NCBI GenBank assembly: GCA_964396645.1
Contig: CAYNFV010000002.1
Location: 1 to 39,689 of the forward strand
Direction: 5' to 3'
DNA length: 39,689 nucleotides
From: an uncultured Dehalococcoidales bacterium
GTDB lineage: Bacteria; Chloroflexota; Dehalococcoidia; Dehalococcoidales; BS750m-G39
This document shows, one piece after another, positions 1,112 to 32,034 of this stretch. Numbering within the stretch: position 1 is the first letter of the stretch; every line of letters starts with the position of its first letter. Under the pieces are notes generated by a model. It did not search any database and was not told the origin of the DNA. It saw nothing but the letters and a program-made list of their open reading frames with translations. Position numbers and translations under genes: made by a program.

Positions 1112-1133
1112 GATATATTCACCTCACTTCTCG

Positions 1134-2425: not shown

Positions 2426-2458
2426 CCTTGGCTAATCAAATAGAAGAGTGGAGTGTGC

Positions 2459-4630: not shown

Positions 4631-4658
4631 CCAGATTTGCTGGTTTTCGCCACTTTAG

Positions 4659-4700: not shown

Positions 4701-4735
4701 TTTCTTTGTGCCTGATTTTCCCCCACCCCCAACAC

Positions 4736-6205: not shown

Positions 6206-6214
6206 AAGATACCC

Positions 6215-6880: not shown

Positions 6881-7139
6881 AAGGAAAATACCTCCAATTA
6901 ATCATAGCAGAGCCAGACGTCCCCGTTCAAGCGTTAAATCAACCCCCAAATCCAGGGTGGATGGGTATTATCACCTGCGTATTTCTACCTAATACAGAAT
7001 GCGTAGTCGGTGGAAACACTGCTGGAAAACACCCGCCTTAATAGGGCAAATACTGATGGAAAAAACGGGCGTGATAACGGATGGAAAGGGCCCGCGAGGA
7101 GAGTAGCATAAGGGTAGAGTTTATAAGGAGGTCGGCTTC

Positions 7140-7637: not shown

Positions 7638-7651
7638 AGGCGAGGGAAGAA

Positions 7652-9532: not shown

Positions 9533-9544
9533 AAGGAGGTAGTT

Positions 9545-10261
9545 ATGGCTAAGGTATGGATTGACGGTGAAACTTCGATAGAGGTGGAACACGCCGAAGG
9601 CGTCGACATTGTCCACCTCACCGTAGACGATAAAGAGATCGCCGTATCGGCGGGAAAAACAATTCTAGAGGCGGTGGAGCGCATGCACGGCATCGGTAAT
9701 ATACCCGCCCTCTGCCACCACCCCGCCGTTAAGCCCTACGGTGCCTGCCGCATCTGCACCGTCGAGGTCAGCGAGGACGGCGGCAACAGGTTCAAGTTCG
9801 TCGCCGCCTGCCTCTACCCGGTCAAAGAGGGCTTGATAGTCAAGACCCAGACCGAAAAGATAAAGAAGCTGCGCAAGGGCATAATCGAGCTTTTACTAGC
9901 CCGCTGTCCTAACGTCAAGAGGATACAGGAGCTGGCCGAGGAATACGGCGTGGAAAAACCCAGATTTGTCTTAGGCGACCAGGACTGCATCCTCTGCGGC
10001 TTGTGCGTCCGGGCCTGCCAGGAGATAATCGGCAAGTCGGCGATAAGCCTGGTCAACCGCGGCATCTATAAAGAGGTGGCGGCGCCCTTCTACGCTTACG
10101 AGCTTAGCGGCGACTGCATCGGCTGCGGCGACTGCGCCTTCGTCTGCCCCACCGGCGCTATTGAGATGGGCGACGACGGCCGACCCAACCTGCCCAAGGT
10201 CAAGATACCCTACGCCGAAATCGAGGCTATGACGAAGAAGGAATCTATAGCTACCTCCTAG
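9545..10261 (+). CDS. NuoG/HndD N-terminal-like [2Fe-2S] + 2x[4Fe-4S] protein lacking any catalytic (H-cluster or MopB) domain
   Basis: CHHPAVKPYGACRICTVEV, CILCGLCVRACQE and CIGCGDCAFVCPTGAI. The protein is only 238 aa. An AGGAGG RBS is present. Confidence 0.85.
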   Translation: MAKVWIDGETSIEVEHAEGVDIVHLTVDDKEIAVSAGKTILEAVERMHGIGNIPALCHHPAVKPYGACRICTVEVSEDGGNRFKFVAACLYPVKEGLIVKTQTEKIKKLRKGIIELLLARCPNVKRIQELAEEYGVEKPRFVLGDQDCILCGLCVRACQEIIGKSAISLVNRGIYKEVAAPFYAYELSGDCIGCGDCAFVCPTGAIEMGDDGRPNLPKVKIPYAEIEAMTKKESIATS

Positions 10262-17400: not shown

Positions 17401-17885
17401 TGGCCAGAGCCAAGAAGGTTAGCCAGGCCGACCTGAAGAAGATTGACACTATTATCGCCAACTATCAGGAGCAGAGATGGGGGCTTATCCCTCTGCTGCA
17501 TGATGTCCAGCAGGCGGTGGGCTATATCCCCCCGGAGGCAATACCGCGCATCGCCAGCGCCCTGGGCCTCTTTCCCAGCCAGGTACAGGGGGTGATTACC
17601 TTTTATGCCCAGTTTTATACCGAGCCGCGGGGCAGGAATATCGTCAGGGTATGCCGGGGCACGGCCTGTCATGTGCGGGGCGGCAAAACGATACTGAAGC
17701 TGGTAAAGCAAGAGCTGGGCTTAGAAGAAGGCGAGACCAGCCCCGACCTGGAATACACCCTGGAGACCGTGGCCTGCATTGGTGTCTGCGCCCTGGCGCC
17801 CAACATCGTCATCAACCAGGAAACCCACGGCAATCTGAACCCGAAGAAAGTAGCCCGATTGTTCGAGAGTAGGCGTAAGAAATGA
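17400..17885 (+). CDS. NuoE/HydC-like [2Fe-2S] subunit
   Basis: VCRGTACHVRGG and ACIGVCALAPNIVIN. The ATG overlaps the upstream stop (TAATG). Confidence 0.9.
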   Translation: MARAKKVSQADLKKIDTIIANYQEQRWGLIPLLHDVQQAVGYIPPEAIPRIASALGLFPSQVQGVITFYAQFYTEPRGRNIVRVCRGTACHVRGGKTILKLVKQELGLEEGETSPDLEYTLETVACIGVCALAPNIVINQETHGNLNPKKVARLFESRRKK

Positions 17886-20800
17886 AGGGAAACGGACATA
17901 AAAAGCGCACTGTTCTTGTCTGCCGGGGCACGGGGTGTGTCTCGGGCGGGGGCGACGCTGTCCTCAAGGCGCTGAAAAGCGAGCTGGCCAGGCAGGGTGT
18001 CAAGGGCGCCGAGATTGATTTCACCGGCTGTCACGGCTTCTGCCAGCAGGGCCCCAATGTTGTCGTCGAGCCGGACGGCATCTTCTATACCCACGTCGAG
18101 CCCGAGGATGCGGCTGAGATTGTAAGCTCGCACCTGCGCGACGGCAAGCCAGTGGAGCGCCTCTTCTACCGCGACCCCGTCAGCGGCCAGGCGATACCAC
18201 GATACGCCGATATTAAATTCTATAAAGAGCAGAGGCGGGTCGTCCTGCGCAACTGTGGGCATATCAATCCGGAGAGGATTGATGACTACCTTGACCGCGG
18301 CGGCTACCAGTCCCTGCGCAAGGTGCTCTTCCAGATGAAGCCAGAAGAGGTCATCGACGAGGTAAAGAGGTCGGGATTGCGCGGGCGCGGTGGGGCCGGT
18401 TTCCCCACCGGACTCAAGTGGGAATTCTGCCACAATGCCTCCGGCTCACCCAAATATGTTATCTGCAACGCTGATGAAGGCGACCCCGGTGCCTTTATGG
18501 ACCGCTCTATCCTGGAGGCAGACCCCCATTCCGTCATCGAAGGGTTGGCCATCTGCGCTTACGCCATCGGTTCTAATGAAGGTTATATCTATGTTCGCGC
18601 CGAATACCCACTGGCGGTAAGCCGGCTCCGGATAGCTCTTGACCAGGCCAGAGAGAGGGGGTTCCTGGGTAATGATATACAGGGCTCCGGTTTCAATTTC
18701 AATGTGCAAATTAAGGAAGGGGCCGGTGCCTTTGTCTGTGGTGAGGAGACCGCCCTTATCGCCTCTATCGAGAGCCGGCGGGGCATGCCCCGCCCCCGCC
18801 CGCCTTTCCCGGCCCAGTCGGGGCTGGACGGTAAGCCCTCCAACATTAACAATGTGAAAACACTGGCCTCAATACCGGTCATTATGGAGAGGGGCGCCGA
18901 CTGGTTTGCCAGTATCGGCACCGAGAAGAGCAAGGGCACCGCCGTTTTTGCCCTCACCGGTAAAATCGCCAACAGCGGACTGGTGGAGGTGCCCATGGGT
19001 ACCCCGTTATCCAAAATTATCTACGAGATTGGCGGCGGCATCCCCAGAAATAAACGGCTTAAAGCGGTGCAGACCGGCGGCCCCTCCGGCGGCTGTATAC
19101 CGGCCCGTTTCATTGACCTGCCGGTGGACTACGAGTCACTGGCCAAGATGGGCTCGATAATGGGCTCCGGCGGCATGGTGGTCATGGACGAGACGACCTG
19201 TATGGTGGATGTTGCCCGCTACTTTCTCAGCTTCACCCAGGCCGAGTCCTGCGGAAAGTGCACCCCCTGCCGCCTGGGGACGAGACAGATGCTGGAAATA
19301 CTGACCCGAATCACGGAAGGCAAAGGCAGCGAGACTGACATAGACACCCTGCTGGCTATAGCCGTAACCGTCAAGGAGTGCTCACTGTGCGGCCTCGGCC
19401 AGACCTCGCCCAACCCGGTGCTCTCCACCATTGAATACTTTCGGGAGGAGTATGATGCCCACATAAAGGAGAAGAAGTGTCCGGCGGCGGTCTGCGACGC
19501 CCTGATGATATCGCCCTGTCAGCACACCTGCCCGGTAGGCATCAACATCCCCAAATATGTGGCCCATATCGCCGCCGGTGAATATAGAGAGGCTGTGGAG
19601 ACTATCTGGGAGCGCAACCCCTTCCCGGCTATCTGCGGCCGCATCTGCAGTCACCCCTGTGAGTTCAGGTGCCGCCGCGGGGAACTGGACGACCCCGTGG
19701 CTATCCGAGCCCTGAAACGCTTCGCCTCTGACTGGTATTTCGAAAACGTCACCGAAGACCCCGAGCCCTTTCCCCAAACCCAGAGCCAGCGAGTGGCTGT
19801 GGTCGGGGCGGGGGCCACGGGACTTTCTTGCGCCTACTTCCTGGCCAAGATGGGCTACCCGACAACCGTCTTCGAGGCGCTCCCCGTGGGCGGCGGTATG
19901 CTCTCGGTGGCCATACCCGAGTTCCGGTTACCTCGAGCGATTATCGAAAAGGAGATTGACTATATCGCCAAACGGGGGGTGGATATACGCTACAACACCC
20001 CGATTAACGTTAACTTCACCGTGGAGGACCTGAGGAAGGACGGCTACTCCGCCGTCTTTATCGCCGCCGGCGCTCAGAGAAGCCAGCGCATCGGCGTGCC
20101 CGGCGAACTGGAGGACGTCGAAGGCTTCTATTACGGACTGAGGTTCCTAAGAGACGTAAAGCTGGGCCGAGCGGTTAAGGTCGGCCGCCGCACCGCCGTC
20201 ATCGGCGGTGGCAACGTGGCCCTGGATGCGGCCCGCACTGCCCTACGCTCCGGTGCCGAGGAGGTAAAGATATACTACCGCCGCTCCCGGGAGGAGATGC
20301 CGGTTACCGAGGTAGAATACGACCAGGCTATTGACGAGGGCATTGAGGTCGGCTTTTTGATTAGCCCCACCCGCATCGTCGTCGATAACTGGCGGCTAAC
20401 CGGTCTGCAGTGCATCAAGATGAAGCTCGGCGAGCCCGACCAGAGCGGCCGCCGGCGGCCCGTCCCCATCACCGGCTCGGAGACCTTTATTGAGGCTGAT
20501 ACTGTTATCGCCGCCGTGGGCCAGGCGCCAGACCTCTCCTTCCTGCCCCTTGACAGCGTTCTGGAGCGCACCCGCTGGGAGACCCTGGTCGTTGACAGCA
20601 ACACCCTGGCGACCAACATCAGCGGCATCTTTGCCGGTGGTGACTTTGTTACCGGGCCGGGTATGGTGATAGACGCCATCGCCGCCGGCAGGAGGGCAGC
20701 CATCTCTATAGACAAATACCTGAGGGCCGATACCTCCAGGGTTGAGATGTACGACCTTAAAGCCAGAGTCGTCGGCGAGGAGCCGGCGCCAGAGGTGGAG

Positions 20801-20950
20801 GAAGCCTGGGAAGCACAGCCCAGAGTGGCCGTGCCGACACTCCCAGTCAAAGAAAGGAAAACGAGCTTTGCCGAGATAGAGCTTTGCTTCTCTGAAGAGA
20901 AGGCCCAGCAGGAAGCCAGGCGGTGTCTCAGGTGTGACCTAGAGACCTAG
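17882..20950 (+). CDS. Fusion protein: NuoF/HydB-like FMN/NADH FeS module (residues 1 to about 530) + GltD/NfnB-like FAD/NAD(P)H module (about 531-1022)
   Basis: NuoF part: VCRGTGCVSGG...CHGFCQQGP, GLRGRGGAGFPTGLKW and ESCGKCTPCRLG. GltD part: CQHTCPVGINIPKYV, CGRICSHPCEFRCRRG, the dinucleotide folds VAVVGAGATGLSCAYFL and TAVIGGGNVALDAA, and GIFAGGD. The ATG overlaps the nuoE-like stop (ATGA). Confidence 0.9.
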   Translation: MKGNGHKKRTVLVCRGTGCVSGGGDAVLKALKSELARQGVKGAEIDFTGCHGFCQQGPNVVVEPDGIFYTHVEPEDAAEIVSSHLRDGKPVERLFYRDPVSGQAIPRYADIKFYKEQRRVVLRNCGHINPERIDDYLDRGGYQSLRKVLFQMKPEEVIDEVKRSGLRGRGGAGFPTGLKWEFCHNASGSPKYVICNADEGDPGAFMDRSILEADPHSVIEGLAICAYAIGSNEGYIYVRAEYPLAVSRLRIALDQARERGFLGNDIQGSGFNFNVQIKEGAGAFVCGEETALIASIESRRGMPRPRPPFPAQSGLDGKPSNINNVKTLASIPVIMERGADWFASIGTEKSKGTAVFALTGKIANSGLVEVPMGTPLSKIIYEIGGGIPRNKRLKAVQTGGPSGGCIPARFIDLPVDYESLAKMGSIMGSGGMVVMDETTCMVDVARYFLSFTQAESCGKCTPCRLGTRQMLEILTRITEGKGSETDIDTLLAIAVTVKECSLCGLGQTSPNPVLSTIEYFREEYDAHIKEKKCPAAVCDALMISPCQHTCPVGINIPKYVAHIAAGEYREAVETIWERNPFPAICGRICSHPCEFRCRRGELDDPVAIRALKRFASDWYFENVTEDPEPFPQTQSQRVAVVGAGATGLSCAYFLAKMGYPTTVFEALPVGGGMLSVAIPEFRLPRAIIEKEIDYIAKRGVDIRYNTPINVNFTVEDLRKDGYSAVFIAAGAQRSQRIGVPGELEDVEGFYYGLRFLRDVKLGRAVKVGRRTAVIGGGNVALDAARTALRSGAEEVKIYYRRSREEMPVTEVEYDQAIDEGIEVGFLISPTRIVVDNWRLTGLQCIKMKLGEPDQSGRRRPVPITGSETFIEADTVIAAVGQAPDLSFLPLDSVLERTRWETLVVDSNTLATNISGIFAGGDFVTGPGMVIDAIAAGRRAAISIDKYLRADTSRVEMYDLKARVVGEEPAPEVEEAWEAQPRVAVPTLPVKERKTSFAEIELCFSEEKAQQEARRCLRCDLET

Positions 20951-20968
20951 CTAGGCAGGAGGTTTGCC

Positions 20969-21613
20969 ATGAAATCAATAACCAGACAGAAGCCCTTCGA
21001 AGAAATAAAGCAGCAGCTAGACAGCTTTAACCGGGTGTTTATCATCGGCTGCGGTACCTGTGCCACCATGACCAAGACCGGTGGCATTGAGCAGGTGCTG
21101 GAGATGAAGAGCCAGCTTCAGAAGATAGACAAGCTGGTCAGTGGCTGGACAGTTATCCCTATCGCCTGCGACGAAATGAGTGAAGTAGCCATGAAGGAAA
21201 ATGACCGGGCTATTCAGAATTCGAACTGTGTCCTAGTAATGAGTTGCGCACTGGGTGTACACAAGATAAGTACTTACATTGACCACCCGGTCATTCCGGC
21301 GCTGGATACCCTGTTCATCGGTATGGAGGATACCCCGGGCTATTTTCGCGAGGTCTGTGCCCAGTGCGGGCAATGTATCATTGGTGAAACCGCCGGCATA
21401 TGCCCCATCACCGCCTGCCACAAAGGTCTGGTTAACGGCCCCTGCGGCGGCACCAATAACGGCAAGTGTGAGGTGGACAAAGAGAAGGACTGTGCCTGGA
21501 CGCTTATCTACGAGCGACTCAAGGCCCAGAACCGCCTTGATTTAATGCGAAAGTATCAGCCTCCCCACAACTTCCAGGCATCGCCCCGGCCGAGGACAGC
21601 CAGAATCTCATAG
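20969..21613 (+). CDS. metV: MetV, the zinc-ribbon/FeS small subunit of anaerobe-type methylenetetrahydrofolate reductase
   Basis: FIIGCGTCATMTKTGG and CPITACHKGLVNGPCGG motifs. It sits immediately upstream of metF. AGGAGG lies 6 nt before the ATG. Confidence 0.85.
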   Translation: MKSITRQKPFEEIKQQLDSFNRVFIIGCGTCATMTKTGGIEQVLEMKSQLQKIDKLVSGWTVIPIACDEMSEVAMKENDRAIQNSNCVLVMSCALGVHKISTYIDHPVIPALDTLFIGMEDTPGYFREVCAQCGQCIIGETAGICPITACHKGLVNGPCGGTNNGKCEVDKEKDCAWTLIYERLKAQNRLDLMRKYQPPHNFQASPRPRTARIS

Positions 21614-21628
21614 AAGGAGGTCAGCAAA

Positions 21629-22513
21629 ATGGTGTCAAGCTTTAAAGAAAAGCTCAACTCGGGCAAGTTTGTCATTACCAGCGAGGTGGCACCTCCCAAG
21701 GGGACCAACCTGGAAAAAACACTGCACCATATTGACCTTCTCAAAGATAAGGTGGATGCGATTAACGTTACCGACCATCAGAGCTCGGTAATGCGCTTCC
21801 CCTCCATCGGCGGCTGCCTGGCGATTAAGGAAAGGGGTGGCGAGCCTATCCTGCAGATGACCTGCCGCGACCGCAACCGCCTGGCCCTCCAGGCCGAGCT
21901 CTTGTTTGCCTATTCCCGGGGTATAAACAACGTTCTCTGCCTCACCGGCGACGCTGTTCCCGTCGGCGACCACAAAGAGGCTAAGGGAGTCTTCGACCTC
22001 GATTCCCTGCAGCTGCTGAAGACGATTCGGATAATGGAATCGGGGCAGGATTTGGGGGGCAATAACCTCGATGGGGCGGTGGAGTTCTGCGCCGGCGCCA
22101 CCGTCACCCCGGAGGCTAATCCAATTGAGCCCCAGCTCATCAAATTCGAGAAGAAGGTGGAGGCGGGCGCCGAATTCTTCCAGACCCAGGGAATCTACGA
22201 CCTGGATAACTTTGCCAAATTCATGAAGCACGCCCGTCAGTTTCCGGTTAAGATACTGGCCGGTATAATCCTGCTCTCTTCAGCCAGAATGGCCAAGTTT
22301 ATGACGGAAAATGTCCCGGGTATATTTGTCCCCCAAGAAATGATTGGCGAACTGGCGGCAGTACCCAAAGAGGAGATGCTGAGCAAGGGTATTGAAATCG
22401 CCGGGCGCATGATTAAAGCCTTGAAAAAGGACTCCGTTTGCGATGGCGTGCACATTATGGCCATTGGCAAAGAGGAGGTCGTCCCCGATATCCTGGCCGC
22501 CGCCGGCCTGTAG
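21629..22513 (+). CDS. metF: Methylenetetrahydrofolate reductase, MetF (acetogen/anaerobe type)
   Basis: 294 aa. KFVITSEVAPPKG, DAINVTDHQSS, MTCRDRN and FFQTQGIYD are typical of the MTHFR TIM barrel. A GAAGGAGG RBS is present. Confidence 0.9.
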   Translation: MVSSFKEKLNSGKFVITSEVAPPKGTNLEKTLHHIDLLKDKVDAINVTDHQSSVMRFPSIGGCLAIKERGGEPILQMTCRDRNRLALQAELLFAYSRGINNVLCLTGDAVPVGDHKEAKGVFDLDSLQLLKTIRIMESGQDLGGNNLDGAVEFCAGATVTPEANPIEPQLIKFEKKVEAGAEFFQTQGIYDLDNFAKFMKHARQFPVKILAGIILLSSARMAKFMTENVPGIFVPQEMIGELAAVPKEEMLSKGIEIAGRMIKALKKDSVCDGVHIMAIGKEEVVPDILAAAGL

Positions 22514-22517
22514 GGCG

Positions 22518-23222
22518 TTAAACTACTCTCTGGGGATTGGTGTAGATCTTCATTCCCCTATCCCTGACAAAGCCGATAATGGTCAGCCCGCACTCCTGTC
22601 CAATCTCGATTCCCAGCCTGGTTACCGCCGTCTTGGTGGCCACAACGGGAATCCTGGCCCGGCAGACCTTGGAAACCATGTCGGAGACCATCCTGCCGGT
22701 TGAGGTGGCGAAGGTATGGCTGAGGTCAAACTTATTAATCAGGGCGTAGCCAATCACCTTGTCCAGTGCGCTGTGCCGTCCGATGTCTTCGGTTATGCAG
22801 ACTGGTTCCGCCCCCCGTTTAAACAGCCCGGCTGAGTGTATGCCTCCGGTCTCGGCGTATATTTTAGATTTCAGGATGGCGTTGACCCCCTTGAATATAT
22901 CTTCTCGGCTGACGCTGAAATCAGAGCCTATCTCCGCAGGCCCTTTTGCCTTACCCTTTTTCTTGAGCAGGCTCACCTCAGCGGTATCCCCTCTCAGTGT
23001 TATCGATTCTATGTCGGCAGCGCTTTCGATAACTCCCCACCCGAACAGGTGCCCGACTACAAACTCCTTCTCCATCATGGGCGTTATCATGGCGGTGGTA
23101 AAATGCTTTCCGTTTACAATAATTGATAAACCCAGCTCGGTGACTACCCTTTCCCTAGCCTTGCTGACTTCGGCATCCAACCTGGTGTATTCAACCCACT
23201 CCAGGCTTCTATCTTTGGACAT
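22518..23222 (-). CDS. fdhD: FdhD-family protein (formate dehydrogenase accessory/sulfur-carrier family), short form lacking the CxxC loop
   Basis: The family signature ITEDIGRHSALDKVIGYAL and ETGGIHSAGLF are present. The protein is 234 aa with only three isolated Cys and no CxxC. Its stop is 4 nt from the metF stop (convergent). Confidence 0.75.
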   Translation of the reverse strand: MSKDRSLEWVEYTRLDAEVSKARERVVTELGLSIIVNGKHFTTAMITPMMEKEFVVGHLFGWGVIESAADIESITLRGDTAEVSLLKKKGKAKGPAEIGSDFSVSREDIFKGVNAILKSKIYAETGGIHSAGLFKRGAEPVCITEDIGRHSALDKVIGYALINKFDLSHTFATSTGRMVSDMVSKVCRARIPVVATKTAVTRLGIEIGQECGLTIIGFVRDRGMKIYTNPQRVV

Positions 23223-23305
23223 TTTTATGTGCCTCCGGCTCTCTCTAAGTATAACGGCTTTAAGGCTGGTTGGCTAGCTTCGGGGATTTGACTGGGCAGC
23301 GGGTA

Positions 23306-23342
23306 TTGACTAGACAATATCAAAATGAGATAATATTGATAT
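23306..23342 (+). promoter_or_regulatory. Putative promoter of the PaaX-like gene, overlapped by an inverted repeat (candidate operator)
   Basis: TTGACT at 23306-23311, a 17-nt spacer, then GATAAT at 23329-23334. The inverted repeat ATATCAA (23317-23323) / TTGATAT (23336-23342) straddles the -10 box. Confidence 0.4.
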
Positions 23343-23368
23343 AGCGTGAAAATAACGCTATAAAGAAA

Positions 23369-24256
23369 ATGAGACATACTAAAGTTAGTCCTAGAGCCGC
23401 CATGCTCACCCTCTATGGGGACTATGTGCTCCACAGGGGGGGTGAGATTGGAATTGGTAGTCTGGTCAGGCTGCTGAGCAATTTTGGCCTGTCGGAACAG
23501 GCTATCAGGTCAGCCGTTTCCCGGATGTGCCGTTCCGGTCTGCTCAAGGCAAAGCGGGCCAACCGCAAAAGCTTCTACTCCCTGACCAGCGAGGGGCATA
23601 GCCTGCTCACCGAGGGGGCGCTGCGCATCTTCCAGCGCAAGCAGTCCCACTGGGAAGGCAACTGGAACATTGTCACCTACTCCATACCGGAACCACTGCG
23701 CCAGGCCAGGGACAGATTGCGCCTTGAGCTGGGCTGGCTGGGCTACGGGCCGCTGGGCGAGGCCACCTGGATTTCACCCCACGACCTGACTCAAGAGGTG
23801 AAGAAGCTGTTGCGGAAACTCGATATTGAGCAATATGTTAACGTCTTCCGCGCCCAGCACCAGGGCAACACTGAACCAAAGAAGATTGTCTCCCGCTGCT
23901 GGGACCTGGGCAAGATACACCAGGAGTACGCCGATTTCCTGACTGCCTATCGCCCCAAGCTGGAAGGGCACCGGAAACGGTTAGAGGCCGGGGAAACCAT
24001 TGAACCCAGCGAGTGTTTTGTCGCCCGTTTCAACCTTATCCATGAATACCGCAAGCTGCCCTTCTTTGACCCCGACCTGCCGCTGGAGCTCCTCCCCGAG
24101 AACTGGTTACGGCCCCAGGCGGCGGCTCTATTTAATGAATATCACGGCTTACTCACCGAGAAAGCCAATGAATACTTCGACTCGGTTTCCGAGAACTACC
24201 GAAGCGCCAGGAGGCTTAAAGAGAAGGGCGCCAAGGCGCTGACGAAAGTAAACTAG
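23369..24256 (+). CDS. paaX: PaaX-family transcriptional regulator (aryl-CoA-responsive repressor family)
   Basis: The N-terminal winged helix LYGDYVLHRGGEIGIGSLVRLLSNFGLSEQAIRSAVSRMCRSGLL...RKSFYSLTSEG is collinear with E. coli PaaX. The C-terminal PaaX_C-like segment is LIHEYRKLPFFDPDLPLELLPENW. Confidence 0.85.
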   Translation: MRHTKVSPRAAMLTLYGDYVLHRGGEIGIGSLVRLLSNFGLSEQAIRSAVSRMCRSGLLKAKRANRKSFYSLTSEGHSLLTEGALRIFQRKQSHWEGNWNIVTYSIPEPLRQARDRLRLELGWLGYGPLGEATWISPHDLTQEVKKLLRKLDIEQYVNVFRAQHQGNTEPKKIVSRCWDLGKIHQEYADFLTAYRPKLEGHRKRLEAGETIEPSECFVARFNLIHEYRKLPFFDPDLPLELLPENWLRPQAAALFNEYHGLLTEKANEYFDSVSENYRSARRLKEKGAKALTKVN

Positions 24257-24314
24257 AGTTCACTATTGTTATGGGAAGCGTTATTTAAAGGCTAACTAAG
24301 CTGGGGGAGTAAAA

Positions 24315-26393
24315 ATGAGGTATGCAGAAACAGGGGTTAATCTAGAAATTGACCTGTCCCGGGGAAGCATTGAGAAGGAAGGAACCGACTCAAGATTAAC
24401 CGAGCTTCACCTGGGTGGGCTGGGGACTAACGCCAGGATACTATGGGATAGGGTCCCCCCTGAGGTTGACCCCTTTTCCCCGGATAATCTGTTAATATTC
24501 AGCGCCGGTCTTCTAGCCGGCACACCGGCTCCTGGCGCCAACCGCACCATTGTTTCCACCTTTTCCCCACAGACGCTGTTAATGGCCTATTCCATAATGG
24601 GCGGCTTTTGGGCACCGGAGCTGAAATTTGCCGGTTATGACAAAGTAATCGTTCGCGGCAAGTCCCCCAATCTGGTCTACCTGTGGATAAACAATGACAA
24701 AGTGGAAATACGCGATGCCTCTCACCTGCAGGGTAAGGGCTGCCTGGAAACCGAAGAGCTTATTAAACAGGAGTTGAATGAGCCCAAAGCCCAGGTGGCA
24801 ACGATTGGCCTGGCTGGTGAAAACAGGGTCTTTTATGCCTCCATCGAGCAGGGGCGGTCCAGCGCCAGCCGGGGCGGCATCGGCGCCGTCATGGGCGACA
24901 AAGGGCTAAAGGCGATAGCCGTCCGCGGGAAAAAGGACGTTATCGTGGCCAAACCGGCTGAATTTTTCGAGCTCTGCAGCGAGGTGCTGAAATACATACA
25001 GTACCGAGCCGATAATCCAATCAAGGGGGTACCGCCCATCTTAGCCGGGCTCGGCTCACCCCAGGAGATGTCACTACATGATGAGCAGTGGCACACGGCC
25101 AGTTTCGCCTGGGGCCATGCCCGCCAAAGGCGAAAGGATTTCTGGAACGAGGAAATCGAAAAGGAATGGAAAGGGGTTCAGGACAAAGCGGTGGAACGGC
25201 TCATAAGCTGTTATAACTGTCCCATGAAGTGCGGGGGCATAATTCACCACCCCAAACTGGAAAGATACATGATGAAGTGCTACTCGAAGCTTACCTATAC
25301 CATGGCGGCTATGTCAGACCTGGATTTCGGCTTTAAAATCGCCGGTCTGGCTCAGGAGTACGGAGTGGACGGCTACACCACGCCGCAGGTTATGGCCTTC
25401 GCCGTCGAGCTTTACGAAGCCGGCATCCTGACCGATAAGGACCTGCCCGGATTTCCCGCCGATAACGAGGAGAGGTTCTTCTACTTACTAGAAAAGCTTG
25501 TGCGGCGGGAAGGTATCGGCGACGTTCTGGCCGAGGGTGTTTACTGGGCGGCCCGAAAGATTGGCAAGGGGGCCGAGGAATACGACCATAATACCATCAA
25601 GAAACACGAGCAGATACCCATCAAGCTGGGGACGATGAACCCTATTTACTATCTCATGTGGTCCACCGGCGAGAAAATCAATATTACCCAGATTGAGGGG
25701 CAGATACCCCAGGCGCCTTTCCCCACTAAAGAGGAGAGGGAGGAATTCGTCAAGGACTGGATTCAGATTCCCAAGGAAGAGTTTAAGGACTTTGTCCTGA
25801 ACTGGGGAGAACCAGGCACCTCATTTCCCAATTACCCGACGGCTGAAGCCGCCTGTGAGCTGGTTGAGTGGCAGGAGACGATGCACTACATTGACGACGC
25901 CACCGGGATATGCGCCGGCCTGTCATCATTTCCCATCAAGCCTCCCTACCACATACATAATTTACCGAGGGTAATCTCAGCCGCCACCGGGCTGGATATC
26001 GATGAAGCTAAACTATGGCAGATAGCCAGGAGGAACCGGACTTTAATCAGAGCCATTAATATCAGAAGGGGCATGAGGCGAAAGGACGAGCGTCCTCCCG
26101 AGGACCATTGGAAGAGGAGATTCCCTGACATTGAAGCTAAACTGCTTGACGAGTACTACAAATACAGGGGATGGAATAATAACGGCATTCCTACCAAAGA
26201 GACTTTAGATGAACTCGGCCTGGATTACGTCAGCCAGGACTTTGAGCAGAGAGGGGTTTATAAGGAAAAGGTCAAGCTAGCGGCTAGCGCCGCCCCGAAA
26301 GAGGCGAGTCAGCCGAAAGCCAAAGCCAAGAGCGCTGCCAAAAAGGCAAAAACCCAGCCAAAACCCAGAGCTAAGAAGGGTTCTAAAAAATGA
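24315..26393 (+). CDS. AOR-family W/Mo-pterin subunit, BamB-like (candidate active-site subunit of a class II benzoyl-CoA-reductase-like complex), with a Lys/Ala/Pro-rich C-terminal tail
   Basis: AOR N-terminal domain (LHLGGLGTNARILWD), SRGGIGAVMGDKGLKAIAVRG, the FeS motif CYNCPMKCGG and QEYGVDGYT. The gene order with the next four genes matches bamBCDEF. The last 43 aa are KEKVKLAASAAPKEASQPKAKAKSAAKKAKTQPKPRAKKGSKK. Confidence 0.8.
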   Translation: MRYAETGVNLEIDLSRGSIEKEGTDSRLTELHLGGLGTNARILWDRVPPEVDPFSPDNLLIFSAGLLAGTPAPGANRTIVSTFSPQTLLMAYSIMGGFWAPELKFAGYDKVIVRGKSPNLVYLWINNDKVEIRDASHLQGKGCLETEELIKQELNEPKAQVATIGLAGENRVFYASIEQGRSSASRGGIGAVMGDKGLKAIAVRGKKDVIVAKPAEFFELCSEVLKYIQYRADNPIKGVPPILAGLGSPQEMSLHDEQWHTASFAWGHARQRRKDFWNEEIEKEWKGVQDKAVERLISCYNCPMKCGGIIHHPKLERYMMKCYSKLTYTMAAMSDLDFGFKIAGLAQEYGVDGYTTPQVMAFAVELYEAGILTDKDLPGFPADNEERFFYLLEKLVRREGIGDVLAEGVYWAARKIGKGAEEYDHNTIKKHEQIPIKLGTMNPIYYLMWSTGEKINITQIEGQIPQAPFPTKEEREEFVKDWIQIPKEEFKDFVLNWGEPGTSFPNYPTAEAACELVEWQETMHYIDDATGICAGLSSFPIKPPYHIHNLPRVISAATGLDIDEAKLWQIARRNRTLIRAINIRRGMRRKDERPPEDHWKRRFPDIEAKLLDEYYKYRGWNNNGIPTKETLDELGLDYVSQDFEQRGVYKEKVKLAASAAPKEASQPKAKAKSAAKKAKTQPKPRAKKGSKK

Positions 26394-26914
26394 AAAAAGT
26401 CAAGCTAATCAAGATAGACGTCGATAAGTGCAACGGCTGCCGGGCCTGCGAGGCAATCTGCTCCGCCTTTCACGCCGAGCCCAAGTACAGCAGCACTAAT
26501 CCGGAGAGGTCACGGATTCGGGTGCTTTGGGACCCACGGAGAGATATCTATATTCCGGTACTGGCTGGTGAGTATACTGAAGCCGAATGTAACGGCCGGG
26601 ACCTGTATACTATTGACGGAAAACAGTACGACGAGTGTGCCTTCTGCCGGGCTTCCTGTCCTTCCCGAGACCTTTTCAAAGACCCCGATTCCGACCTCCC
26701 GCTAAAGTGCGATATGTGCGAAGAAGAACCGCCGCTGGAGGAGCCGCTGTGTGTCCAGTGGTGCCTATCTGACGCCCTGACCTACGAGGAACGGGAGGAG
26801 GAAGGGGAAGAAGAGGAGAGGCCGGATGAGATGGAGATAGGCCTGGAATCGTTAATCAAAAAACACGGCGCCAAGGCGGTAATGGATACCGTTAACCGAT
26901 TAACCAAGGAATAA
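26390..26914 (+). CDS. Poly-[4Fe-4S] ferredoxin subunit, BamC-like
   Basis: CNGCRACEAIC, CAFCRASCP and CDMCEEEPPLEEPLCVQWC. The ATG overlaps the upstream stop (ATGA). An acidic run, YEEREEEGEEEERPDEM, is present. Confidence 0.8.
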   Translation: MKKVKLIKIDVDKCNGCRACEAICSAFHAEPKYSSTNPERSRIRVLWDPRRDIYIPVLAGEYTEAECNGRDLYTIDGKQYDECAFCRASCPSRDLFKDPDSDLPLKCDMCEEEPPLEEPLCVQWCLSDALTYEEREEEGEEEERPDEMEIGLESLIKKHGAKAVMDTVNRLTKE

Positions 26915-26933
26915 AAGAAAGGGATAAAAGATA

Positions 26934-28109
26934 GTGGAGACCGTAGCACCCTTCAAAGAGGCCATAGATGCCATAAAAGAGGCCGGCGGCGAAGCCTTCA
27001 AGCTTTGCTACCAGTGCGGGCTGTGTGATACCGTCTGCCCCTGGAACCGGGTTAGAGACTTCAGTATGCGCCACATTGTCCGACAGGCTGCCTTCGGTCT
27101 GCCCGAGATAGAGGGCGAGGATATCTGGCGCTGCACTACCTGCGGGGCCTGCCCCCAAGCCTGCCCCCGGGGAGTGGGCACGATAGACGTCAGCGTTTCC
27201 TTTCGCCGCATTGCCTCGGAGGCCGGGATTTCCCCACCCCCCATCCACACCACCAGTGTCAATCTTGGCGCCGAGGGCAACCCTCTGGGCGAACCACGCG
27301 ACCAGAGAGGGGACTGGGCCAAAGAGCTCTCGGTAAAACCCTTCACCGAGGGGATGGAAATCCTGTATTTCCCCGGCTGCTACCCCAGCTATGACTCAAG
27401 ACTAAAAAAGGTGGCTGCGGCCACGGCCAATATCCTTAACCAGGCGGGGGTGGATTTCGGCATACTGGGTGCCAAGGAGAATTGCTGCGGAGAAAGCATC
27501 CGCAAGGCGGGCGATGAGGAGCTATTCAAACGATTAGCCAAGGAAAACATCAAAGCCTTTATTGATAATGGCGTCAAGAAAATCCTGGTCTCTTCGCCTC
27601 ACTGCTACCACACCTTCAGCAACGAGTATACCGAATTTAGGGCCAACTTTGAGGTGGTCCATATCTCCCAGTTTCTATTAGAGCTTATCAATGAGGGCAG
27701 ACTAAAGCTCAGCAAGGAGTATAAGAAGAAAATAACCTACCATGACCCCTGTTACCTGGGCCGGCATAACGGCATCTATGACGAACCCCGAGAGGTCCTA
27801 AAGAAGGTGCCCGGCCTAGAGCTGGTTGAGATGCCCGATTCGCGGGAAAACAGTCTCTGTTGCGGAGGGGGTGGGGGCCGAATCTGGATGGAAACCCCCA
27901 AGGGGGAAAGGTTCGCCGACCTCAGATTAGAACAGGCCACCGGGGTCAGGGCTGAGGTGCTGGTCACCTCCTGCCCCTATTGCATCATCAATTTTGAGGA
28001 CAGCCGCCTAGCCCTAGAGGACAGCGAGGTCATCGAGGTTAAAGATATCACTGAAATTATCCAGGAGGCGATTGGGGAACCCAAGAAGGCTGATAAGGAC
28101 GGAGAATAG
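26934..28109 (+). CDS. HdrD/GlpC-like FeS protein with two CCG domains, BamD-like
   Basis: 2x[4Fe-4S] motifs CYQCGLCDTVCP and CTTCGACPQACP. CCG-domain motifs PGCYPSYD...ENCCGES and DPCYLGRH...SLCCGGGGG. GTG start directly after an in-frame TAG. Confidence 0.8.
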   Translation: METVAPFKEAIDAIKEAGGEAFKLCYQCGLCDTVCPWNRVRDFSMRHIVRQAAFGLPEIEGEDIWRCTTCGACPQACPRGVGTIDVSVSFRRIASEAGISPPPIHTTSVNLGAEGNPLGEPRDQRGDWAKELSVKPFTEGMEILYFPGCYPSYDSRLKKVAAATANILNQAGVDFGILGAKENCCGESIRKAGDEELFKRLAKENIKAFIDNGVKKILVSSPHCYHTFSNEYTEFRANFEVVHISQFLLELINEGRLKLSKEYKKKITYHDPCYLGRHNGIYDEPREVLKKVPGLELVEMPDSRENSLCCGGGGGRIWMETPKGERFADLRLEQATGVRAEVLVTSCPYCIINFEDSRLALEDSEVIEVKDITEIIQEAIGEPKKADKDGE

Positions 28110-31100
28110 TGGCTAAAGAACCAGTTGAAGGACAGCTTAATAACCCCGAAGAAAATATCGGCGATGTTATGGTCGTCGGTGGCGGTATCAGCGGCATTCA
28201 AGCCTCACTCGACCTGGCCGAGATGGGCTTTAAGGTCTACCTGGTCGATAGCTCGCCGGCTATCGGCGGCAAGATGGCCCAGCTCGATAAGACCTTCCCC
28301 ACCAATGACTGCTCCCTGTGCATTGAATCCCCCAAGTTTATTGAATGTGACCGGCATCCCAATATAGAGATCCTGACCTATACCGATGTTGACAAGGTGG
28401 AAGGGGAAGCCGGAGACTTCAGGGTAACCCTGACCCGGAAGCCCCGATACATCATTGAAGACGAATGCCGGGGTTGCACCACCTGCACCGAGTACTGCCC
28501 GGTCAAGGTCCCCGATAAATATAATCAAAACCTGTCTCTTACCAAGTGCAGCCATATATACTTCTCTCAATCGGTGCCGCTGGTCACCTATATTGACCCC
28601 GAAAGCTGCCTTTTCCTTAAGGACGAGAAGTGCAACATCTGCGTCGGAGTCTGTAAGAATGACGCCATAGACCTTCATCAAAAGCCCGAGAAGCTGGAAA
28701 TAGAGGTCGGGGCCATAATTATGGCTCCGGGCTATGAGGCGTTTGACGCCAGGCTGAGGAACGACTACGGCTACGGCAAGATGCCCAATGTGGTCAGCGG
28801 CCTCGACTTCGAACGGATACTATGCTCCACCGGCCCCTACGAAGGCGAGATAAGGCGCCCCTCTGACGGCAAGCACCCCAAGAAGATAGCCTGGATTCAG
28901 TGCGTCGGCTCGCGGCAGGTTATCCCCGGCGGCAACAGCTATTGCTCGGCCGTATGCTGCACCTATACCCAGAAGCAGGTGATTCTAACCAAAGACCATG
29001 ACACCGAGGCAGAATGTACCATATTCCATAACGACATTCGCTCGTTCGGCAAGGACTTCGAGCGATTCTATCAGAGGACGGAGAAGCTTCCCGGCATTCG
29101 CTTTATCAGAAGCTACGTATCAATAGGCAAAGAGCTGCCCAACAAGAACGTAACCATAAAATACTCCACCACCGATGACGGGGTAAAAGAAGAGGAATTC
29201 GACATGGTGGTGTTATCCGTGGGCTTGAACCCCCCTCATGATGTTGAGAAATTGGCGGAAAAGTTCGGCATCGAGCTTAATGAACACCTATTCTGTAAGG
29301 TCAATCCGAATAACCCTATCGAGACCACACGCCAGGGAATCTTTGTCAGCGGCGCCTTCCGCGGGCCTATAGATATCCCCGAGTCGGTTATGACCGCCAG
29401 CGGGGCGGACGCCCTCTGCAGTCAACTGCTAGCCTACCGGCGGGGGAAGCTGGCCAAAGAGAGGGAATACCCGCCGGAAAGGGACGTCTCGGCTGAGGAG
29501 CCTAGGGTGGGGGTCTTTGTCTGCCACTGCGGAGCCAACATCGGCCGGGTGGTGGACGTTCCTTCAGTGGTTGAGTATGCTTTGACCCTACCTAATGTCG
29601 TCCACGCTCAGGAAGACCTCTTTACCTGTTCTACCGATGCCGCCGAGAAGATAACCGAGGCCATCAAAGAAAAGGGGCTCAATCGCGTCGTTGTCGCCGC
29701 CTGTACCCCCCGGACGCACGAGCCATTATTCCGGGATACGCTGCGCGAGGGAGGCATCAACCCCTACTACTTTGAGTTCGCCAACATCAGGGAGCACTGC
29801 TCCTGGGTCCATTCCCGGGAAAAGGAAGCCGCCACCAGAAAGGCCAAGGATATCGTCCGCATGTCGGTGGCCCGAGCTCTCCTGCTGCAGCCTTTAAAGG
29901 AATTCGAGCTGCCCGTGGACAAGAGGGGGCTGATAGTGGGGGGTGGTATAGCCGGCATGATCAGCTCCCTGAGCCTGGCTGAGCAGGGCTTTGAGGTCTA
30001 CCTGGTGGAAAAGGATAAAGAATTGGGGGGCATTGCCCGTAGAATCCATTACACCCTGGAAGGGATGGATGTTCAGGCCTATCTGAGTGACATTATAGGC
30101 AAGGTCTACCGGCATCCCCTAGTTCATGTAATGACCGACGCCACCATTACCGAGGCCAGCGGTTATGTGGGCAACTTCGTCACCAAGGTGAAGTCGGGAG
30201 AAAGGGTCAGGGAGATAAAACACGGCATAACCATCATTGCCACCGGTGCCGAAGAGTATAAGCCCACCGAATACCTTTACGGCCAAGATGAGCGGGTATT
30301 TACCCTGCTCGATCTGGAGGAGAAAATCGCCAAAGGCGAAGCCAGCGTGACCGACGCCCAGAGCCTGGTGATGATTCAGTGCGTCGGCTGCCGAAATGAA
30401 GACCGAAACTACTGCAGCCGGGTGTGCTGCAACAACGCCATAACCTGTGCCCTGAAATTGAAAGAGAAAAAGCCCGATATGGATATCTACATTCTCTATC
30501 GGGACATCAGGAGCTACGGCTTTGCCGAGGACTACTACCGGGAGGCGGCAAACAAAGAGGTGAAGTTCATCCGCTACGAGCCGGAGGATAAGCCCCAGGT
30601 GGAAGCCGTCGAAGAGGGCGGCAAGAGTATACTGAGGGTCACCGTGACCGACCCCATTCTGGGCAAGAAGATAGCCCTAGACGCCGACGCCCTGGCTCTG
30701 GCCGCCGCCGTTATTCCCCCGGAGACCAATAATGAAATAGCCAAGCAGTTCAAGGTGTCTTTGAGCCCGGACGGTTTCTTCCAGGAAGCCCACGTCAAAC
30801 TGCGGCCGGTTGACTTTGCCGCCGACGGCGTTTTTCTCTGCGGCATAGCTCACTATCCCAAGCATATAACGGAATCGATTGCCCAGGCCTACGGAGCCGC
30901 TGGCCGAGCAGCCACCGTTCTCTCCAAGGATTCGGTAACCGCCTCCGGGGCTATCTGCGAGGTGAATGAGAGCCAGTGCGTCGGCTGCGGTCAGTGTCAG
31001 GCAGCTTGCAAATACGGTGCTATCGAGATGAACGATACCCCAGAGGGCAAAAAGGCTAAGGTTATCCCCGTCCTCTGTAAAGGTTGCGGCCTCTGTGCTA

Positions 31101-31201
31101 CCAAGTGTCCCACCGAGGCTATTTCGTCGAAACACTTTACCGACGAGCAGATCCTTACCGAGGTCGATGCCGCCTTTCCCGCCCTTGTCGAGGTGCACTG
31201 A
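28109..31201 (+). CDS. Double HdrA-like FAD/FeS protein (1030 aa), BamE-like
   Basis: Two HdrA-type FAD folds are present: VVGGGISGIQASLDLAEMGFKVYLVD...TNDCSLC and IVGGGIAGMISSLSLAEQGFEVYLVE. HdrA Cys clusters are YCSAVCC and YCSRVCC. Ferredoxin motifs are CRGCTTCTEYCP, CVGCGQCQAACKYGA and CKGCGLCATKCP. The GTG start shares one nt with the upstream TAG. Confidence 0.85.
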   Translation: MAKEPVEGQLNNPEENIGDVMVVGGGISGIQASLDLAEMGFKVYLVDSSPAIGGKMAQLDKTFPTNDCSLCIESPKFIECDRHPNIEILTYTDVDKVEGEAGDFRVTLTRKPRYIIEDECRGCTTCTEYCPVKVPDKYNQNLSLTKCSHIYFSQSVPLVTYIDPESCLFLKDEKCNICVGVCKNDAIDLHQKPEKLEIEVGAIIMAPGYEAFDARLRNDYGYGKMPNVVSGLDFERILCSTGPYEGEIRRPSDGKHPKKIAWIQCVGSRQVIPGGNSYCSAVCCTYTQKQVILTKDHDTEAECTIFHNDIRSFGKDFERFYQRTEKLPGIRFIRSYVSIGKELPNKNVTIKYSTTDDGVKEEEFDMVVLSVGLNPPHDVEKLAEKFGIELNEHLFCKVNPNNPIETTRQGIFVSGAFRGPIDIPESVMTASGADALCSQLLAYRRGKLAKEREYPPERDVSAEEPRVGVFVCHCGANIGRVVDVPSVVEYALTLPNVVHAQEDLFTCSTDAAEKITEAIKEKGLNRVVVAACTPRTHEPLFRDTLREGGINPYYFEFANIREHCSWVHSREKEAATRKAKDIVRMSVARALLLQPLKEFELPVDKRGLIVGGGIAGMISSLSLAEQGFEVYLVEKDKELGGIARRIHYTLEGMDVQAYLSDIIGKVYRHPLVHVMTDATITEASGYVGNFVTKVKSGERVREIKHGITIIATGAEEYKPTEYLYGQDERVFTLLDLEEKIAKGEASVTDAQSLVMIQCVGCRNEDRNYCSRVCCNNAITCALKLKEKKPDMDIYILYRDIRSYGFAEDYYREAANKEVKFIRYEPEDKPQVEAVEEGGKSILRVTVTDPILGKKIALDADALALAAAVIPPETNNEIAKQFKVSLSPDGFFQEAHVKLRPVDFAADGVFLCGIAHYPKHITESIAQAYGAAGRAATVLSKDSVTASGAICEVNESQCVGCGQCQAACKYGAIEMNDTPEGKKAKVIPVLCKGCGLCATKCPTEAISSKHFTDEQILTEVDAAFPALVEVH

Positions 31202-31233
31202 AGAAGGCGACTCTTTAGGAGCGAGCTTTAAAA

Positions 31234-31971
31234 ATGGCTTCAAACTACGATTTCGAACCGAAGATTCTAGGCTTCCTGTGTAACTGGTGTTGCTACGCCG
31301 GGGCGGACTTGGCTGGTGTTTCCCGGTATCAATACCCCCCTAACATGAGGGTAATAAGGATGATGTGCTCCGGCAGAATCGACCCGAAATTCATTTTCCG
31401 CGCCTTCGCCAACGGAATTGACGGGGTCTTTATCGGCGGTTGCTGGCTGGGTGAATGCCATTACGCCTCGGAAGGTAATTACGACGCCCTGGAGATAACC
31501 AAGCGGAGTAAAAAGGTATTGGAGCAGATGGGCTTGAGCCCGGACAGGTTGCGCATTGAATGGGTTTCGGCTTCGGAGGGAATCCGTTTCGCCGAACTGG
31601 TTACCGAATTCACCAAGAAACTAAAGGAGCTGGGACCTCTGGGGGTAGGTGAAGGTAAAGACCCGGAGGAGTTAAAAAAAGACCTCGAAGCCGCCGAAAA
31701 ATACGCCCTTAAGAAGCTGGTCTCATACTATATTGACCCGGAGAAGTGTCAGGGCTGTATGATTTGCCTACGGAAGTGCCCGGAAGAAGCGATAACCGGC
31801 GGCAAGAATCAGATACATGTTATCGACCAGGAGAAGTGCATAGCCTGTGGCCTCTGCTTTCAGAGTTGCCCCCCTCGCTTCGGCGCGGTACAAAAGCTTA
31901 TAGCCGAGCCAGTGCCCCCTCCCATCCCCGAGGAGGCCAGAACCATAGCCAGAAAGGGTGAAAAAGAATAA
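31234..31971 (+). CDS. MvhD-like domain + 2x[4Fe-4S] ferredoxin, BamF-like
   Basis: MvhD/FlpD signature FLCNWCCYAGADLAG...MCSGRIDP...GGCWLGECHY. The C-terminus carries CQGCMICLRKCP and CIACGLCFQSCPP. Confidence 0.85.
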   Translation: MASNYDFEPKILGFLCNWCCYAGADLAGVSRYQYPPNMRVIRMMCSGRIDPKFIFRAFANGIDGVFIGGCWLGECHYASEGNYDALEITKRSKKVLEQMGLSPDRLRIEWVSASEGIRFAELVTEFTKKLKELGPLGVGEGKDPEELKKDLEAAEKYALKKLVSYYIDPEKCQGCMICLRKCPEEAITGGKNQIHVIDQEKCIACGLCFQSCPPRFGAVQKLIAEPVPPPIPEEARTIARKGEKE

Positions 31972-31994
31972 AGGAAAGATTGAATCTATTCGGG

Positions 31995-32034
31995 GCCCCC
32001 AGAGGTCTTACGGCTTTTGGGGGCTTATTATTTT
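31995..32034 (+). terminator. Rho-independent terminator closing the Bam-like operon (between convergent genes)
   Basis: GCCCCCA (31995-32001) pairs with TGGGGGC (32018-32024). The stem extends further through A-T, G-C and G-U pairs. TTATTATTTT follows. Confidence 0.7.

Follow-up and report, generated by a model that had tools for sequence, protein, structure and literature searches.

How could a class II benzoyl-CoA reductase work without the NAD module of the Geobacter enzyme? The question is raised by a paaX-bamBCDEF gene cluster in a 39,689-nt stretch (positions 1 to 39,689) of contig CAYNFV010000002.1 (assembly GCA_964396645.1) of an uncultured Dehalococcoidales bacterium; this whole stretch of DNA is called the window below. 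Class II reductases carry out one of the lowest-potential reductions in biology free of ATP, and how they drive it has been inferred rather than demonstrated. In the scheme proposed for Geobacter, ferredoxin is the electron donor, NAD+ is the high-potential acceptor reached through BamGHI, and flavin-based electron bifurcation takes place in BamE. We estimate a probability of about 0.75 that the operon in the window encodes a class II (tungsten-dependent, ATP-independent) benzoyl-CoA reductase in a second layout, here called type 2, which lacks BamGHI and would use a redox partner other than NAD(H).

Relatives were taken from a scan of one genome per GTDB species, which gave at least 594 loci encoding relatives. 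Gene order, BamF tails, neighbouring genes and paaX linkage were compared across 80 related bam loci, labelled L001 and so on; among the matches listed, the nearest relatives are Dehalococcoidales metagenome-assembled genomes (MAGs) with BamB identities of 86-89%, which makes an origin of the window in this order almost certain. Domains were called with Pfam and NCBIfam, and the AOR-family subunit was compared with all PDB sequences. Since NCBIfam holds no Bam-specific models, BamB to BamF receive no curated family call. An Rfam scan of the window gave zero matches.

Identity of the catalytic subunits

An initial annotation of this DNA had read the cluster as a class II, tungsten-containing, ATP-independent BamBCDEF-type operon, and the catalytic subunits bear this out. 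The AOR-family protein scores 1087 bits against Geobacter metallireducens BamB (4Z3W_A), with 70.0% identity over a global alignment, and 237 bits against the best aldehyde-oxidising AOR (1AOR). The tungsten ligand Cys322 and the [4Fe-4S] ligands Cys299, Cys302, Cys306 and Cys533 are all kept, so that the inspection of active-site residues called for in the annotation turns up every cofactor cysteine. Aligning 78 orthologues that share 65% identity or more with the Geobacter enzyme gives 171 invariant columns, and the window protein agrees at 171 of 171. A paralogue of 61% identity (L030) keeps 156 of these and loses 15, and the other AOR-family protein of the window keeps 64. In the neighbour-joining tree, the phylogenetic check that had likewise been named, the protein groups with L001-L004 inside the BamB clade and not with the aldehyde AORs. 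By these sequence measures we regard it as a true BamB.

The aldehyde-oxidising AORs (Pyrococcus 1AOR, FOR, WOR5 and Aromatoleum AorABC, 8C0Z) have the same superfamily fold (AFOR_N plus AFOR_C) and share with BamB the tungsten-pterin and [4Fe-4S] cofactor set; however, they score only 128-237 bits, compared with 1087 bits for BamB. An aldehyde-oxidising identity for this 692-aa protein, which nests in the BamB clade, is out. The second subunit, BamC, scores 257 bits against 4Z3W_E, is 70.7% identical and keeps 12 of 12 cluster cysteines. The gene order bamB-C-D-E-F and the domain sets of BamD, BamE and BamF are those of the Geobacter metallireducens complex Bam[(BC)2DEFGHI]2 (BamBC structures 4Z3W-4Z40), which differs in having BamGHI. 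Unlike Geobacter BamB, the window protein ends in a 43-residue basic Lys/Ala/Pro-rich tail. The tblastn matches in L001 and L003 reach BamB query residues 684 and 692, and the BamB proteins of these two loci appear to share the tail.

Three further Chloroflexota/Dehalococcoidia MAGs (L017, L018 and L031) encode BamB orthologues of 76-77% identity in another setting, with a molybdopterin-oxidoreductase-like gene before bamB, a flavodoxin-like gene after it and no bamC-F detected in the downstream sequence at hand.

Two architectures of bam clusters

It had been noted that no bamGHI adjoins the cluster. This is true of the operon itself, in which bamF is followed by a terminator and convergent genes. 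We classed every locus with enough downstream sequence (n=45) by its BamF tail and by the genes after bamF. Where BamF carries two C-terminal CxxCxxCxxxC motifs (type 2, the type of the window), no NuoE/F/G-like genes follow bamF in 22 of 22 loci; where BamF ends in a tail of ~100 residues that is not of the iron-sulfur type (type 1), bamGHI comes directly after it in 20 of 20 loci. The remaining three, L012, L042 and L070, fit neither class. About half of the classed clusters (22/45) are thus without bamGHI, and we read the missing genes as a second architecture and not as a gap. Because so many of the sampled clusters also lack bamGHI, its presence would define the Geobacter subtype and not the enzyme class. 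Both types occur scattered through the BamB tree, and L025, a single MAG contig, carries one of each.

What distinguishes the two is the end of BamF: a non-iron-sulfur tail in the GHI-linked clusters, a BamH-type 2x[4Fe-4S] domain in the window. We find that the window tail is 69-73% identical over 82-86 residues to its top matches among the extreme C-terminal 2x[4Fe-4S] domains of BamH. Its median identity is 67% to 43 BamH C-terminal domains, compared with 54% to 54 NuoF-like domains from contigs with no visible bam gene and 52% to NuoF1 of the window itself. Type-2 tails form a clade adjoining the BamH domains in a neighbour-joining tree, and both share the ending RFGAVxK..EPVPPPI, which NuoF1 lacks. 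On this sequence evidence the fused domain is specifically the C-terminal ferredoxin domain of BamH. Type-2 clusters have neither BamG, BamI nor the NADH/FMN core of BamH, and carry the BamH ferredoxin domain within BamF. On our reading, type 2 is a layout from which the NAD module may have been lost while the BamH ferredoxin domain was retained.

The non-iron-sulfur tail is found in L005, L009, L024, L026 and other type-1 loci. The one tail scanned, that of L005, is an ArsR-type winged helix (HTH_5, 37 bits), an odd element for a redox subunit that may serve as a docking element for BamGHI. Among the unclassed loci, the Dehalococcoidia MAG L012 (17554-18744) has the order paaX-bamBCD-fdhD-bamE, followed by a short BamF of 187 aa with the MvhD domain only and by a separate BamI-like [2Fe-2S] plus 2x[4Fe-4S] protein; BamG and BamH are absent there. 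This is a possible intermediate architecture.

NAD(H) module and redox partners

The initial annotation had placed the NAD(H)-linked module in trans. On this account the enzyme would be of the canonical Geobacter type, with BamGHI encoded elsewhere. The window offers a candidate, as it holds two NuoE/NuoF-type sets (7140-10261 and 17400-20950) that had gone unmentioned. The first is a stand-alone trio with the domain layout of BamG, BamH and BamI: a NuoE-like protein, a NuoF-like protein with an N-terminal 2Fe-2S and a C-terminal 2x[4Fe-4S] domain, and a short NuoG-like protein that lacks the catalytic domain. It is closer to the cluster-linked BamG, BamH and BamI of 22 sets (44-54%, 54-65% and 39-49% identity) than the second set is (36-43%, 48-60% and 32-37%). 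However, cluster-linked BamG, BamH and BamI show median mutual identities of 73%, 76% and 73%, and because the identities of the trio fall below these medians, it lies outside the BamGHI clade.

Gene context speaks against the trio as well. We examined the synteny of NuoF1 relatives in 80 metagenomic loci and found that close trio orthologues (78-96% identity; L083, L084, L086 and L153) are stand-alone and have no visible bam genes around them, though the contigs of L083 and L086 are shorter than 4 kb. Trios at ~60-65% identity have more than one kind of neighbourhood: some follow bamF, others adjoin FdhA or occur together with other HdrA-like genes. Because NuoF1 retains its own C-terminal ferredoxin domain, it is not a complementary "rest of BamH" for a BamF that already bears the BamH-type domain. 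No PaaX operator precedes the trio, and no GHI-like gene occurs within ±10 kb of the 22 type-2 loci, except in L025, which has its separate type-1 cluster there. The trio is therefore unsupported as a BamGHI orthologue. With the split between BamF tail and bamGHI holding without exception among the classed loci, the proposal of an NAD(H) module in trans did not stand, and we consider it unlikely.

If the type-2 layout is read instead as one with a partner other than NAD(H), a few loci hint at what that partner might be. In the closest relatives, L001 and L002, and in a few other type-2 loci, the genes after bamF encode an EtfB-EtfA pair, a membrane-anchored 675-aa protein that has 2x[4Fe-4S] and two CCG domains, or both. 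This linkage occurs in 6/22 type-2 versus 0/21 type-1 loci (p = 0.02, uncorrected, the loci not being phylogenetically independent). Given so weak an enrichment, we propose the Etf/CCG system as a type-2 redox partner as a hypothesis only.

Substrate and pathway context

The annotation had left the true substrate open, which appears too cautious in view of the orthologues. Type-2 orthologue clusters, for example L047 and L056, have as neighbours a gene for a Had-like zinc-dependent alcohol dehydrogenase, one for an Oah-like crotonase of 395 aa and one for an AMP-forming CoA ligase. We observe such lower-pathway-type neighbours next to orthologous clusters of other lineages, for example L047, L056 and L066, and the bamB neighbours in these lineages also include acyl-CoA dehydrogenases, thiolases and an XDH-family molybdenum subunit. 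Judged by its genes, this is a benzoyl-CoA pathway setting. Because the invariant positions are fully conserved and orthologues stand beside Had, Oah and ligase genes, the substrate is most likely benzoyl-CoA or a very close analogue. Since no lower-pathway genes occur in the window or the close flanks, this is an assignment by orthology. The flanks of the Dehalococcoidales relatives carry glycolytic, transporter, CoA-transferase and acyl-CoA-synthetase-like genes (called mostly by eye), and extending the contig to the left of the window gave DegV and unknown genes only.

A BamB-family reductase could instead act on another aryl-, alicyclic- or enoyl-CoA, such as a substituted benzoyl-CoA or a phenylacetyl-CoA-derived compound, or could run mainly in the aromatising direction as an electron sink in fermentative or acetogenic Dehalococcoidales. 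The setting in the window leaves room for this: lower-pathway and ligase genes are missing here and from the closest Dehalococcoidales flanks, the neighbouring genes are of the Wood-Ljungdahl type (Fdh, MetVF), the regulator is a PaaX-family protein, from a family in which the characterised members respond to phenylacetyl-CoA, and the routine assay of BamBC runs in reverse. The catalytic subunit argues the other way, with 171 of 171 BamB columns and 70% identity to the characterised enzyme, whereas paralogue L030 at 61% has already lost 15 columns; it also nests among orthologues embedded in Had/Oah/ligase clusters. We consider these alternatives, taken jointly, improbable.

BamD, BamE, BamF and selenium

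Across the 80 loci the order is always B-C-D-E-F, and the window proteins are 57-86% (BamD), 59-86% (BamE) and 42-79% (BamF) identical to their counterparts. BamE matches NCBIfam HdrA2 with 966 bits in three stretches; all scores of the Bam proteins stay below the Hdr equivalog cutoffs of NCBIfam. The parts resemble those of HdrABC-MvhAGD, which carries out flavin-based electron bifurcation in methanogens: BamE contains HdrA-like modules with the HdrA motif FPTNDC..C/U, BamF contains an MvhD domain, and BamD corresponds to a fusion of HdrC and HdrB (CCG). In contrast to the methanogen complex, there is no hydrogenase or heterodisulfide-reductase context here, and the low-potential output would go to a tungsten AOR-type subunit.

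The Geobacter enzyme contains selenocysteine. In most relatives BamE has an in-frame TGA in the motif FPTNDCSM-U-IL and BamF has one in CHW-U-AY, whereas the window encodes Cys71 of BamE (TGC, 28319-28321; FPTNDCSLCIE) and Cys19 of BamF (TGT, 31288-31290; CNWCCY). The cysteine forms of both subunits are also found in L001-L005 and in a minority of loci of both architectures. Judging from these codons, the complex is a selenium-free variant.

In acetogens, MetFV is known to associate with HdrA/MvhD-like proteins, and metV-metF (20969-22513) ends only ~0.9 kb upstream of paaX, but it is highly improbable that bamDEF serve this methylene-tetrahydrofolate reductase in a Moorella-type MetFV-HdrABC-MvhD complex with the AOR subunit as an unrelated passenger: translational coupling ties bamDEF to bamB and bamC within a single operon that has a promoter and a terminator of its own, their products share 57-86% identity with BamDEF of bam clusters that lack a nearby metFV, the opposite-strand fdhD and paaX stand in between, and the genes beyond fdhD vary in relatives (an acyl-CoA dehydrogenase in L004, glycolytic genes in L002). 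On these grounds of operon structure and orthology, BamDEF were dropped as partners of MetVF.

Operon organization

The genes paaX-bamBCDEF form one tightly packed six-gene operon (Table 1). All six open reading frames lie where the annotation had placed them, as five tightly spaced co-directional genes preceded by paaX, and Pfam backs each of its family assignments. The ATGA overlap of bamB and bamC (26390-26393) agrees with the sequence, the 58-nt spacer between paaX and bamB is real, and the one-base overlap at 28109, also seen in relatives L001 and L002, consists of a G common to the TAG stop of bamD and the GTG start of bamE. The promoter just 5′ of paaX is the best match in the region, with 10 of 12 positions and an extended -10 element, and its -35 and -10 elements are conserved in an alignment of 10 Dehalococcoidia loci. 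At the other end, a terminator between convergent genes closes the operon; it consists of a hairpin and a T-run, and its coordinates shift from the 31995-32034 of the annotation to those given in Table 1.

Table 1. Positions of the features of the paaX-bamBCDEF locus, with the NuoE/NuoF/NuoG-like trio
Feature	Position	Strand	Description
NuoE/NuoF/short-NuoG trio	7140-10261		BamG/H/I domain layout, stand-alone
fdhD-like sulfurtransferase gene	22518-23222	-	Pfam FdhD-NarQ; NCBIfam TIGR00129, 157 bits (cutoff 140.9)
Predicted sigma-70-type promoter of paaX-bamBCDEF	23306-23334	+	TTGACT, 17 nt, TG-GATAAT
Candidate operator O1	23340-23362		Perfect inverted repeat TATAGCGT-N7-ACGCTATA
paaX	23369-24256	+	295 aa, first operon gene; three PaaX Pfam domains
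Candidate operator O2	24276-24294		In the 58-nt paaX-bamB spacer, reverse orientation to O1
bamB	24315-26393	+	692 aa, tungsten-bis-pterin and [4Fe-4S] catalytic subunit; AFOR_N + AFOR_C
BamB C-terminal tail (residues 650-692)	26262-26390	+	43 residues, Lys/Ala/Pro-rich, strongly basic, low-complexity; KEKVKLAASAAPKEASQPKAKAKSAAKKAKTQPKPRAKKGSKK
bamC	26390-26914	+	174 aa, 3x[4Fe-4S] electron-transfer subunit
bamD	26934-28109	+	391 aa, HdrD-like, 2x[4Fe-4S] and two CCG domains (Pfam)
bamE	28109-31201	+	1030 aa, GTG start; two HdrA-like FAD modules and C-terminal 2x[4Fe-4S]
bamF (type 2)	31234-31971	+	245 aa; MvhD/FlpD-like (aa 11-134) and 2x[4Fe-4S] (aa ~160-245, nt ~31711-31968)
Intrinsic terminator	31993-32026 (listed as feature to 32036)	+	15-pair stem, 8 G-C pairs, T-rich tail

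Divergent from paaX lies an fdhD-like gene, and the same fdhD(-)/paaX(+) layout is found in L001-L004 and L046. The encoded protein is probably a maturation factor for a tungsten- or molybdenum-pterin enzyme. FdhD-like genes lie inside or adjoin the bam cluster in 20 of the 80 loci, and this recurrent linkage suggests a role in maturing the tungsten cofactor of BamB. The crystal structure of BamB reportedly left the sixth ligand of tungsten unidentified. Loci with an FdhD-like gene include L012, L021, L024, L025, L033, L034, L040, L043-L045 and L050, and the gene is placed variously between bamD and bamE, after bamC or after bamI; in the lineage of the window fdhD stays divergent from paaX even where the genes beyond fdhD vary. 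Another recurrent neighbour is a GNAT acetyltransferase gene (~150 aa) directly 5′ of bamB, at ~0.2-1 kb, in 24 of the 80 loci (L013-L020 among others). It occurs with both architectures and is absent from the window, where paaX takes its place.

PaaX-type regulator and candidate operators

The PaaX-family regulator named in the annotation has all three PaaX domains above their cutoffs (PF07848, an N-terminal winged helix-turn-helix; PF20803, central; PF08223, C-terminal) and scores 122 bits over residues 6-254 against E. coli PaaX (PDB 8A39), which represses the paa operon and responds to phenylacetyl-CoA, so that the homology runs over the full length. Characterised PaaX repressors respond to phenylacetyl-CoA. 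In ten of the 80 loci, all of them from Dehalococcoidia, a paaX homologue lies before bamB (L001-L004, L007, L008, L012, L035, L046 and L058), and in L012 the paaX stop codon overlaps the bamB start. In all ten it is linked to bamB and not to paa genes. The comparison of loci indicates that the paaX-bamB linkage is conserved and specific to Dehalococcoidia. The window regulator differs from E. coli PaaX in that its gene is the first of the operon that it presumably controls and in being bam-linked instead of paa-linked. Geobacter bam genes use other regulators, whereas here the gene for a PaaX-type repressor lies inside the operon.

A regulator site had been suggested at 23300-23345. That interval is mostly promoter, and the conserved palindrome, our candidate operator O1, lies at 23340-23362. 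It is directly downstream of the -10 box and over the predicted transcription start, the promoter and start region being where a repressor such as E. coli PaaX would be expected to bind. O1 occurs only once in the window, where chance alone would give 0.11 matches. It is conserved ahead of paaX in L001-L004, L007 and L046, and L008, L012 and L035 have variants of it. The repeat TATAGCGT-N7-ACGCTATA is presumably unlike the E. coli PaaX box. The second candidate, O2, shares 15 of 19 positions with the reverse complement of the O1 19-mer and is the best non-self match in the window, the next being 13 of 19. We searched for O1-like sites upstream of the NuoE/NuoF/NuoG-like trio and throughout the window and found only O1 and O2, both at the bam operon; a shared PaaX regulon within the window is unsupported.

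Other genes in the window

At 2453-4630 lies a second AOR-family gene, which is not of the Bam type: its 725-aa product scores 153 bits against 1AOR but only 93 against BamB. Next come minus-strand genes for a PAS histidine kinase and a LuxR response regulator, and after them the trio; the same arrangement (2453-10261) occurs on two Joint Genome Institute metagenome contigs, L081 and L082. The region may encode an NAD-linked aldehyde-oxidising system. Next to the second AOR gene, the left edge of the window (95-2333) contains a tyrosine recombinase/integrase gene (1323-2333, minus strand) and a helix-turn-helix protein gene (95-1111, minus strand), which may mark the border of a mobile element.

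A block of the Wood-Ljungdahl type spans 14716-22513. It starts with an FdhA-like molybdopterin formate dehydrogenase that has a NuoG-type N-terminus, and continues with NuoE, a 1022-aa NuoF fused to a GltD/NfnB-like NAD(P)H-FAD module, MetV and MetF. The NuoF-GltD fusion adjoining MetVF would be an unusual electron-input module for methylene-tetrahydrofolate reductase.

Proposed mechanism and implications

Several observations weigh against a type-2 benzoyl-CoA reductase under aryl-CoA control. The 39.7-kb window lacks genes for dienoyl-CoA hydratase, Had, Oah and aryl-CoA ligase, and lower-pathway and ligase genes are also missing from the sequence within ±10 kb of the closest Dehalococcoidales loci. 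A NuoEFG-like trio is present 14 kb upstream, and the Etf/CCG system is absent from the window and found in only 6/22 type-2 loci. On the regulatory side, the regulator scores 246 bits against the NCBIfam PaaX equivalog TIGR02277, just under its cutoff of 264.55, and O2 is only partly conserved in relatives.

The scheme that we favour starts from what the sequences show: which genes are present, their orthology, the conserved cofactor ligands, the existence of two architectures, the source of the fused domain and the conservation of the operator. From there we infer substrate, bifurcation, redox partner and effector. BamB would use its tungsten-pterin site to reduce the aromatic ring of benzoyl-CoA or of a closely similar aryl-CoA, with BamC wiring electrons to it. 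BamD, BamE and BamF would make up an Hdr/MvhD-like flavin and iron-sulfur module that generates electrons of very low potential by flavin-based electron bifurcation, by analogy with the Geobacter enzyme. The ferredoxin domain grafted onto BamF could be a port for electron exchange with a partner other than NAD(H), which might be soluble ferredoxin or, in some relatives, EtfAB with the membrane CCG-protein system; it is probably not BamGHI from elsewhere. Transcription would start from the promoter upstream of paaX, and the PaaX-like protein may repress it by binding O1 over the transcription start and probably also O2 before bamB. An aryl-CoA, in all likelihood benzoyl-CoA, would lift the repression, and the operon paaX-bamBCDEF would be autoregulated.

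A wider proposal, which we advance tentatively and with less than even confidence, is that type-2 reductases in general are NAD-independent and couple ring reduction through the grafted domain to ferredoxin or to an EtfAB/membrane CCG-protein/quinone system.

The enzyme class is well known, and the value of this locus lies in its variant architecture and regulation and not in a new kind of system. By sequence it departs from the Geobacter prototype in five ways: the fusion of a BamH domain to BamF in the absence of BamGHI, cysteine in place of selenocysteine, the BamB tail, a paaX gene within the operon and a divergent fdhD. In architecture the cluster is an ordinary member of a widespread group that bears on the electron path of class II reductases. 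About half of the sampled bam clusters lack BamGHI yet keep the BamH ferredoxin domain on BamF; this suggests that the NAD module is dispensable for the core chemistry, and the fusion points to where that module plugs in. If the proposed reading is true, the BamF fusion would also show where the NAD module physically docks in the Geobacter megacomplex, and the type-2 enzyme of the window would offer a smaller, selenium-free five-subunit model for reaching about -620 mV without ATP. The locus also extends the range of the enzyme, in a complete, selenium-free form with a lineage-specific PaaX-type regulator, to uncultured Dehalococcoidales, a point of interest for how aromatic compounds are turned over in anoxic sediments.

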